From: Escherichia coli
GTDB taxonomy: Bacteria; Pseudomonadota; Gammaproteobacteria; Enterobacterales; Enterobacteriaceae
Assembly (NCBI RefSeq): GCF_002854065.1
Contig: NZ_CP024147.1
Length of the DNA stretch: 64,000 nucleotides
Reading direction: 5' to 3' (one strand)
Each line of letters starts with the position of its first letter. Within the stretch, counting starts at the first letter, position 1. This document shows, piece by piece, positions 49,496 through 51,819 of the stretch. The notes under the pieces were generated by a model. The model saw nothing but the letters and a program-made list of their open reading frames with translations. It had not been told where the DNA came from and did not search any database. Position numbers and translations under genes: made by a program.

Positions 49496-50520
49496 ACCGA
49501 CTCCTGATTCAAATGTATGATGGTATTCATTGAACAGAACAATGGATCCCCCACCGTTGCTGACCGCAAAACATTTACGCGATTAATACTGCGCGTAATA
49601 TAATTAAAAATCCAGCATTCTCAATCCATTACGAAATAAGATGGCATTACGGAATAGCCAGACTTTCTCGTGTTAACGTCCGACAAAATGCGTCATTGAC
49701 AGCGGTTTCTGTGGATTGACACATTTCATTCAGATAATGAATTAATGCTACTGCCGGAACAACCAGCAAACGGGCATTGTGTTCTGAAATCCAGGCTATT
49801 GATTCAACGTCAGCGACAGATCTGCGCTGTAAAAGAACTTGTAAAACAACGTAATAGAATTATCCGGAATGGTGGCGACTATGCACTAGAACACCACAAT
49901 TTCGCTCTCTCGGTAAGGCACTGTCACAGCATTCAACAGAATGTGACTTGCCAGATTTATTAGCGCCACCAGATGTTTAACCGGGTAACCACGACCCAGT
50001 CGGGGATATATTCCATCTTCTCGCTGACATCATCAAGAATAAAAAGGTTTATCACACTCAGAGCAACGTTCTTCAGCAGGCGGGATAATTCTTCAACATT
50101 TAGAAGATGTGTTATTAAAGGCATACAAACTGGACGTATTGTATTTTCTTTTGGTGGTTGACCTAAGGTAGCAGTTTATCCTGATGCGCTGAGATTTCTG
50201 TAATATCTACGTCAACATTCTCCTCGAATAGAAAATGCAGCCCCGGCAAGTGATTCACATTTTTTAACAAAACGTTGTTAGCGTGCCATTTTCAGAAGCT
50301 CTCCAAGAAAGCGAATTCTTTTCTCAAATTCTGCATTCTCAGACACAGCTTTCTACTCCATGGTAATGGCCCAAATACGAAGTTGCTCAGGATCATTAGT
50401 GGTGCTGAGAAGTTAAATAACCATGCGGAGTACCACTCGTCATCACGTATTTATATATCATGAAGCTATTGTTGTGTTTTGTACATCAGTAGATATATTC
50501 TGATATACTCCTTTTGCTAG

Positions 50521-51715
50521 GGAAGGTGCGAATAAGCGGGGAAATTCTTCTCGGCTGACTCAGTCATTTCATTTCTTCATGTTTGAGCCGATTTTTTCTC
50601 CCGTAAATGCCTTGAATCAGCCTATTTAGACCGTTTCTTCGCCATTTAAGGCGTTATCCCCAGTTTTTAGTGAGATCTCTCCCACTGACGTATCATTTGG
50701 TCCGCCCGAAACAGGTTGGCCAGCGTGAATAACATCGCCAGTTGGTTATCGTTTTTCAGCAACCCCTTGTATCTGGCTTTCACGAAGCCGAACTGTCGCT
50801 TGATGATGCGAAATGGGTGCTCCACCTTGGCCCGGATGCTGGCTTTCATGTATTCGATGTTGATGGCCGTTTTGTTCTTGCGTGGATGCTGTTTCAAGGT
50901 TCTTACCTTGCCGGGGCGCTCGGCGATCAGCCAGTCCACATCCACCTCGGCCAGCTCCTCGCGCTGTGGCGCCCCTTGGTAGCCGGCATCGGCTGAGACA
51001 AATTGCTCCTCTCCATGCAGCAGATTACCCAGCTGATTGAGGTCATGCTCGTTGGCCGCGGTGGTGACTAGGCTGTGGGTCAGGCCACTCTTGGCATCGA
51101 CACCAATGTGGGCCTTCATGCCAAAGTGCCACTGATTGCCTTTCTTGGTCTGATGCATCTCCGGATCGCGTTGCTGCTCTTTGTTCTTGGTCGAGCTGGG
51201 TGCCTCAATGATGGTGGCATCAACCAAGGTGCCTTGAGTCATCATGACGCCTGCTTCGGCCAGCCAGCGATTGATGGTCTTGAACAATTGGCGGGCCAGT
51301 TGATGCTGCTCCAGCAGGTGGCGGAAATTCATGATGGTGGTGCGGTCCGGCAAGGCGCTATCCAGGGATAATCGGGCAAACAGGCGCATGGAGGCGATTT
51401 CGTACAGGGCATCTTCCATGGCACCGTCGCTCAGGTTGTACCAATGCTGCATGCAGTGAATACGCAGCATGGTCTCCAGCGGATAGGGCCGTCGGCCATT
51501 GCCCGCCTTGGGATAAAACGGCTTGATGACAGCGGTCATATTCTGCCATGGCAGAATCTGCTCCATGCGGGAGAGGAAAATCTCTTTTCGGGTCTGACGG
51601 CGCTTAGTGCTGAATTCACTATCGGCGAAGGTGAGTTGATGGCTCATGATGTCCCTCTGGGATGCGCTCCGGATGAATATGATGATCTCATATCAGGAAC
51701 TTGTTCGCACCTTCC
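50521..51715 (-). mobile_element. IS5 insertion sequence, complete (1195 bp)
   Basis: Terminal inverted repeats GGAAGGTGCGAATAAG (50521-50536) and CTTGTTCGCACCTTCC (51700-51715); flanking 4-mers are CTAG (left) and CTAA (right). Confidence 0.95.
50667..51647 (-). CDS. insH: IS5 transposase InsH
   Basis: 326 aa ORF recognised as the IS5 (IS4-family DDE) transposase. Confidence 0.9.
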
Positions 51716-51819
51716 CTAATTTCGATAGGTTCTCAGATGAGAATGATGACGGTGATACACAGATAAGAATCAATGAGCAATGAGGGTTGCCGGGCAACCC
51801 TCATTGAATAAAACAGGAA

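Follow-up and report, generated by a model that had tools for sequence, protein, structure and literature searches.

Why does a complete IS5 between cobU and tmaR (yeeX) in Escherichia coli stand between two different tetranucleotides, when an IS5 insertion is expected to be bounded by a 4-bp direct duplication of its YTAR target? The element lies in a 64,000-nucleotide stretch of DNA, referred to here as the window, and was first described in a sequence-only reading as a complete IS5 with intact inverted repeats, flanked by CTAG on the left and CTAA on the right and ending about 100 bp from the yeeX stop codon. These observations were borne out (Table 1). The interval given in that reading, 50517-51719, takes in IS5 proper (50521-51715) together with both flanking tetranucleotides, and the distance from IS5 to the tmaR stop codon is 104 bp. 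No second IS5 copy was found within the 64-kb window.

Table 1. Features of the cobU-tmaR interval in the window, with the junction sequences used in the comparisons (a slash marks the joint).
Feature	Position	Strand	Basis or remark
cobU, intact	48950-49495	-	
Left flank, cobU-proximal relic region	49496-50516	none	collinear with K-12 and SCU-316
cbiP-like pseudogene	49647-49790		annotation of the identical stretch in strain 100416
IS4-family remnant	49799-49987		annotation of the identical stretch in strain 100416
Small hypothetical ORF	49960-50124		annotation of the identical stretch in strain 100416
CTAG, new left junction	50517-50520	none	native IS5-type target, uninterrupted elsewhere as TTTTGCTAG / ACATAACC
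Complete IS5 element	50521-51715	- (transposase strand)	1195 bp; ends and comparison with other copies
Left terminal inverted repeat, GGAAGGTGCGAATAAG	50521-50536	none	the end which gained the new flank
IS5 transposase ORF, intact	50667-51647	-	326 aa; NF033581 match
Right terminal inverted repeat, CTTGTTCGCACCTTCC	51700-51715	none	
CTAA, surviving right copy of the original duplication	51716-51719	none	native; falls on the stop codon of pseudogene yoeF, a pduV remnant
Right flank, CTAA to tmaR stop codon	51720-51819	none	identical to MEI4BO-21 and SY3626
Hairpin, 14-bp stem	51778-51806		untouched; probably the tmaR terminator
tmaR (yeeX), intact	51820-52149	-	
Left junction (deletion or left insertion)			ACTCCTTTTGCTAG / GGAAGGTGCG
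Ancestral-insertion junction			GGCTGTTGCTAA / GGAAGGTGCG
Junction expected only in a two-copy intermediate			CGCACCTTCC / CTAGACATAACC

An IS5 (IS5 family, IS5 group) is about 1195 bp long with 16-bp imperfect ends of the form GGAAGGTGCGAA(T/C)AAG. It has one intact DDE transposase, about 326 aa in length and recognised by the IS5 model, has high nucleotide identity to reference IS5 and is flanked by the 4-bp YTAR duplication. The window copy has the length and the ends, its terminal inverted repeats being complementary at 15 of 16 positions, which is the natural IS5 imperfection. Its single intact transposase scores 365.5 bits against the NCBIfam model for IS5 family transposases (NF033581, cut-off 140) with residues 24-313 covered, and is WP_001575870.1 in the annotation of strains 100416, CUWW06 and MEI4BO-21; the RefSeq label for the element is 'IS5-like element IS5 family transposase'. 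The duplication is what it lacks (CTAG vs CTAA). Judged by its sequence, the window element is still an IS5, and one whose target duplication was lost after insertion, because the identical copy in MEI4BO-21 is flanked by CTAA/CTAA.

The canonical IS5 of K-12 (the insH copies) has the same length and 16-bp ends, a 326-aa transposase and a 4-bp YTAR duplication; the window copy differs from it in being 96.2% identical and an IS5/ISKpn26 mosaic. Positions 50521-51069 are K-12-type IS5, 51192-51353 are IS5-type again, and 51372-51715 are ISKpn26-type. All but one of the differences from K-12 IS5 fall in 51087-51715, and much of that transposase-proximal part is ISKpn26-type. MEI4BO-21 carries the same mosaic. 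The EC24 copy at the same site is a different patchwork, with 16 differences, a pattern suggestive of gene conversion between IS5-family copies.

The left flank was compared with K-12 MG1655 (locus L002), to which 49000-50520 is 100% identical. The window CTAG corresponds to L002 20221-20224, where K-12 continues uninterrupted into CP4-44 as TTTTGCTAG joined to ACATAACC, and the right flank starts at L002 31165, on the stop codon of the pseudogene yoeF, an EutP/PduV remnant. The two flanks that abut IS5 in the window, the left one ending at L002 20224, are thus separated in K-12 by 10.9 kb (10,942 bp), comprising yoeA fragments with IS2, a GTPase pseudogene, agn43 (flu), yeeR, yeeS, yeeT, cbeA, cbtA, yeeW and yoeF. 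The presence of CP4-44 between cobU and yeeX in K-12, as stated in the sequence-only reading, is correct. That reading did not mention that K-12 has its own IS5 in the cobU-tmaR interval, at a different CTAG. This K-12 copy was considered as a source of the window junction and rejected: it lies 631 bp nearer cobU, at the CTAG equivalent to window 49886-49889, is flanked by its own perfect CTAG/CTAG duplication, and its site is empty in the window. Near that CTAG, at about 49744, CUWW06 has an IS1B insertion.

Each of the two tetranucleotides is native to its own site. The left site, TTTTGCTAG followed directly by ACATAACC, is uninterrupted in K-12, MEI4BO-21, SY3626, EC24 and SCU-316, and the distance from its CTAG to the IS5 site ranges across the comparison genomes from 6.6 kb to about 30 kb. 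The empty right site reads TTAA in K-12 and is a single CTAA in E. coli 042, which has no IS there; a CTAA pair around IS5 is therefore a true duplication. Other copies behave normally in this respect, the nearby K-12 IS5 as described above and an ISKpn26 in HZ13, which is flanked by CTAA/CTAA.

A synthetic empty-site query, in which 400 bp of the left flank were joined to 400 bp of the right, was run against 5,426 complete E. coli genomes. A contiguous joined site, the outcome that the sequence-only reading had named as refuting its view, was found in none of them (0/5,426). The query was covered over more than 80% in two genomes only, the pangolin isolates M159-1 and M171-1, in which an IS1B lies between the flanks (4321-5089 of the M159-1 locus, L007) and joins the left flank at the equivalent of window position 50441 to the interior of yoeF. 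Here the same island has been lost independently, in an event bounded by IS1.

Searches for the two IS5 junctions gave different distributions. Only two complete genomes have the left junction, flank to IS5: those of strain 100416, from human stool in the Gambia, and of CUWW06, from wastewater in Thailand. Each shares the whole arrangement of the window. The right junction, IS5 followed by CTAA and TTTCGATAGG, occurs in these two and also in MEI4BO-21, SY3626 and EC24. In the latter three, IS5 sits between yoeF and tmaR as GGCTGTTGCTAA, IS5, CTAATTTCGATAGG, with a perfect CTAA/CTAA duplication and with a CP4-44-family island still present to its left. Their copies are identical to that of the window at 1195/1195 (MEI4BO-21), 1194/1195 (SY3626) and 1179/1195 (EC24) positions, and the left CTAG lies 6,579, 9,055 and 26,203 bp away, respectively. 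A further seven genomes (HL15, SF10, EC-07, EC06, A134_1EC, TUM12357 and Z1323CEC0018) have an IS5 that lies left of the CTAA site by about 550 bp, close to the transposase remnant beside yoeF, and is a separate insertion in the same small region.

These comparisons show that the earlier state exists, that the two sites are separate native sequences and that the window state is the derived one. They also bear on the alternatives named in the sequence-only reading. Its suggestion that the flanks might map to positions separated by CP4-44 elsewhere agrees with the distances found, and its proposal of an IS5-mediated adjacent deletion, or of recombination between two IS5 copies, is supported by the wide separation of the flanks in other genomes and by the ancestral CTAA/CTAA state. 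The further possibility it allowed, a normal insertion into contiguous flanks followed by a G/A mutation in one copy of the duplication, has the attraction that the tetranucleotides differ at one base only, but we regard it as excluded: the flanks lie 6.6-30 kb apart in every comparison genome and are contiguous in not one of those searched, CTAG and CTAA are each native at their own site, and the same IS5 retains an intact CTAA/CTAA in three island-bearing genomes.

Our preferred reading, which we consider very likely, is that an IS5 at CTAA lost one copy of its duplication through an IS5-driven deletion of a CP4-44-type island. The insertion at CTAA came first, and the DNA between the left end of IS5 and CTAG was lost later. 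It is the left side that changed, because the island-bearing genomes keep the same right junction with CTAA/CTAA intact. IS5 would have inserted at the CTAA that overlaps the yoeF stop codon, about 100 bp downstream of tmaR/yeeX, with the usual duplication (CTAA/CTAA) as the outcome; at that time a CP4-44-family island was still present between cobU and yoeF. A later IS5-dependent deletion would then have fused the left terminus of the element to the cobU-side CTAG. Lost with it would have been yoeF, the left copy of CTAA and the island in its entirety, a length that depends on the island of the ancestor and lies in the range from 6.6 kb to about 30 kb. On this reading the flanks read CTAG and CTAA because the element and its right junction stayed untouched while the left CTAA copy was removed.

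The joint has the features of an adjacent deletion. The IS is intact, and it and its right junction are as in undeleted relatives (identical in MEI4BO-21, near-identical in SY3626 and EC24); its other terminus abuts, to the base, collinear DNA that in other genomes is found in the same orientation but 6,579, 9,055, 10,942 (K-12) or 26,203 bp away; and the new junction is at a preferred target, with the first base of the IS joined to CTAG. In the cobU-to-IS5 interval of the comparison genomes YTAR makes up 0.6-0.7% of positions and CTAG 0.02-0.04%, with 2-5 CTAG sites. It was very probably the IS5 transposase that chose the CTAG endpoint, because the joint combines an exact IS5 terminus with a preferred target of such rarity; transposase dependence is something we infer from the endpoint only.

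The endpoint also bears on two explanations that dispense with transposase, namely an illegitimate or microhomology-mediated deletion at the IS5 terminus and an assembly collapse of two island-flanking IS5 copies, which taken together we regard as very improbable. Microhomology is available, the two sites being alike at 8 of 10 positions (CTTTTGCTAG and CTGTTGCTAA), but a crossover within the shared TTGCTA predicts TTGCTAA followed by GGAAGG, and what is observed is TTGCTAG followed by GGAAGG. A random endpoint would abut a YTAR with a chance of about 0.007. IS repeats are a classic cause of mis-joins, yet this junction is common to three separate assemblies (the window, 100416 and CUWW06) that otherwise differ by an IS1B insertion, the sbmC changes and prophage content.

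The likeness of the IS5 targets at window 50511-50520 and at the end of yoeF (L003 15096-15105) is an observation in its own right. Given the shared CTA, the chance of the 5/6 match upstream is roughly 0.005; it could be a coincidence or an extended IS5 target preference.

IS5-driven deletion could have followed either of two routes. In a one-step route, intramolecular replicative-type transposition of the resident IS5 into CTAG would send the island out on a circle, while the IS itself, a single copy of the new target and the former right flank would stay in the chromosome. In a two-step route, a second copy in the same orientation would hop into CTAG and homologous recombination between the two copies would follow. 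We regard the routes as about equally likely; both give exactly the same product, with no distinguishing mark. The two-copy intermediate, an IS5 at the left CTAG with CTAG/CTAG, was looked for among the complete genomes, where the left junction is present only in the two deleted genomes; neither IS5 followed by CTAG and ACATAACC nor the left junction was found in metagenome contigs by two exact-pattern scans, which is an absence of evidence only. When the IS at the joint was tested for a chimeric structure it proved identical at all 1195 positions to the CTAA-site copy of MEI4BO-21, and an identical hopped copy would leave no trace. The mosaic was considered as proof of recombination between two copies and rejected: an identical mosaic stands at the CTAA site of MEI4BO-21, and the mosaic therefore predates the deletion and is silent on its route.

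The haplotype of the surrounding DNA switches exactly across IS5, being K-12/SCU-316-like on the left (43000-50520) and MEI4BO-21/SY3626/EC24-like on the right (51716-55583). Between 48900 and 50520 the window has 0 differences from K-12 and SCU-316, 7 from MEI4BO-21 and from EC24 and 24 from SY3626; over 8.5 kb these three differ from it by about 2%, and 4 SNPs separate it from K-12 over 43000-50520; the last informative site on the left, 50495 (A in the window), 25 bp from the IS, is of the K-12/SCU-316 type. To the right of IS5 there are 0-1 SNP in 3.9 kb against MEI4BO-21, SY3626 and EC24, apart from two window-only changes in sbmC, and there are 55 differences from K-12 and 81 from SCU-316, neither of which has an IS5 there. 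None of the available genomes is, on this comparison, the direct ancestor, and since the flank matches are split between groups of genomes the ancestor would be either an uncollected mosaic or a chromosome in which the joint was made with incoming DNA. SCU-316, the closest relative of the left flank, was considered as ancestor and rejected; its island is about 30 kb long, its right site reads TTAA and carries no IS5, and its right flank is divergent.

The switch is what would be expected if the joint were inter-genomic. A K-12/SCU-316-like recipient with an IS5 at the left CTAG would have received MEI4BO-21-like donor DNA with an IS5 at CTAA, and crossovers inside IS5 and further right, towards his/rfb, would have lost the island and replaced the right flank in one event. 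IS5 would then have served as portable homology in horizontal transfer, importing a foreign tmaR-dacD (perhaps his/rfb-proximal) segment while deleting the island, which if true would explain why the haplotype changes exactly at the element. Position 50495 is of one type and IS5 and everything rightwards of the other, as this model has it, and the first ~550 bp of the window IS5 are the same as the K-12 type, so that a crossover there would be traceless. We nevertheless hold both an inter-genomic joint and the role it gives IS5 to be unlikely. A recipient with IS5 at the left CTAG is needed, and none was seen in the 5,424 other complete genomes or in metagenome contigs; moreover, a crossover within the island, in its conserved yeeS-cbeA-cbtA-yoeF part, and a later adjacent deletion of the ordinary kind give the same haplotype pattern and need no unobserved insertion beyond those that other models need. 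With the yeeS-cbtA-yoeF part conserved among islands, the simplest account on the deletion reading is that the ancestor had already recombined inside the island and that the crossover point was then deleted along with it.

Several other features of the neighbourhood were recorded. The cbiP-like fragment by cobU and the pduV-like yoeF by tmaR look like what we presume to be relics of the Salmonella cbi-pdu region, which has the same position; the pduV relic is removed by the deletion in the window and the cbiP-like fragment borders the interval on the cobU side. The sbmC gene (53577-54041, minus strand) has a 9-bp in-frame deletion at about 53915, by which Val-Pro-Lys is lost, and a SNP at 53878, giving a product of 154 aa vs 157; both changes are absent from 100416, CUWW06, MEI4BO-21 and K-12. 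IS1 copies lie at 40635-41405 and at 63520-64000; the first has yeeN on one side and a tRNA-Asn gene on the other, an arrangement found also in CUWW06, and the second is cut by the window end. From about 55583, downstream of dacD, the window has prophage-type DNA of the kind seen in CUWW06 and SY3626; K-12 and MEI4BO-21 do not have it.

The islands in this interval differ in size and content. Those of SCU-316 and EC24 are 26-30 kb long and have no agn43, and carry genes for dynamin-like, RdcB, patatin-like, DUF932 and antirestriction proteins together with yeeS, yeeT, cbeA, cbtA (frameshifted) and yeeW, and those of MEI4BO-21 and SY3626 are already shortened around IS1 copies. The window adds a case of erosion or loss of a CP4-44-family island, the carrier of the CbtA/CbeA toxin-antitoxin module and in K-12 also of Ag43. 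Several independent IS-driven losses are seen in the same interval: internal deletions by IS1 in MEI4BO-21 and SY3626, loss of the entire island with IS1B at its bounds in the pangolin isolates, and loss by IS5 x IS5 recombination in K-12 laboratory lines. The window provides a clean natural before-and-after case of an IS5 losing its target duplication, which is not surprising, and for annotation it means that mismatched flanks of this kind are a deletion scar and not a decayed insertion.

The event in the window is a textbook IS-mediated adjacent deletion, of a kind already well known. Adjacent deletion and IS recombination are the usual reasons given for missing target duplications (review, PMC11708052). 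In a study of 520 mutation-accumulation lines of E. coli K-12, the commonest class of IS-associated deletion, with 72 of 98 events, was the one that links an IS already present to a new site; IS5A led all elements in activity, with 361 insertions and a part in 52 of the 98 deletion events (PMC5009759). The window corresponds to this 'E + N' class (Lee et al. 2016 NAR, PMC5009759) insofar as the resident IS5 is intact, one flank is kept and the other now borders DNA that once lay far away on the chromosome; the difference is that theirs are laboratory events from a known founder, whereas we infer ours from natural isolates. In the same K-12 lines CP4-44 was lost twice through IS5 x IS5 recombination (PMC5009759), at the same locus and likewise through IS5, but between pre-existing copies about 35 kb apart and with the removal of 30 host genes as well; in the window the island and yoeF alone are gone, and the left endpoint is a site at which no IS5 was seen in any other genome. 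The adjacent deletions of IS903, and of IS150 in the Lenski long-term lines, are alike in that the IS is kept, the DNA to one side of it is gone and there is no longer a target duplication (PMC11708052). For IS903, the best-studied IS5-family element, on which the mechanism was worked out, adjacent deletion is tied to the replicative (cointegrate) pathway (PMC11708052), and by analogy the same pathway may be extended to IS5.
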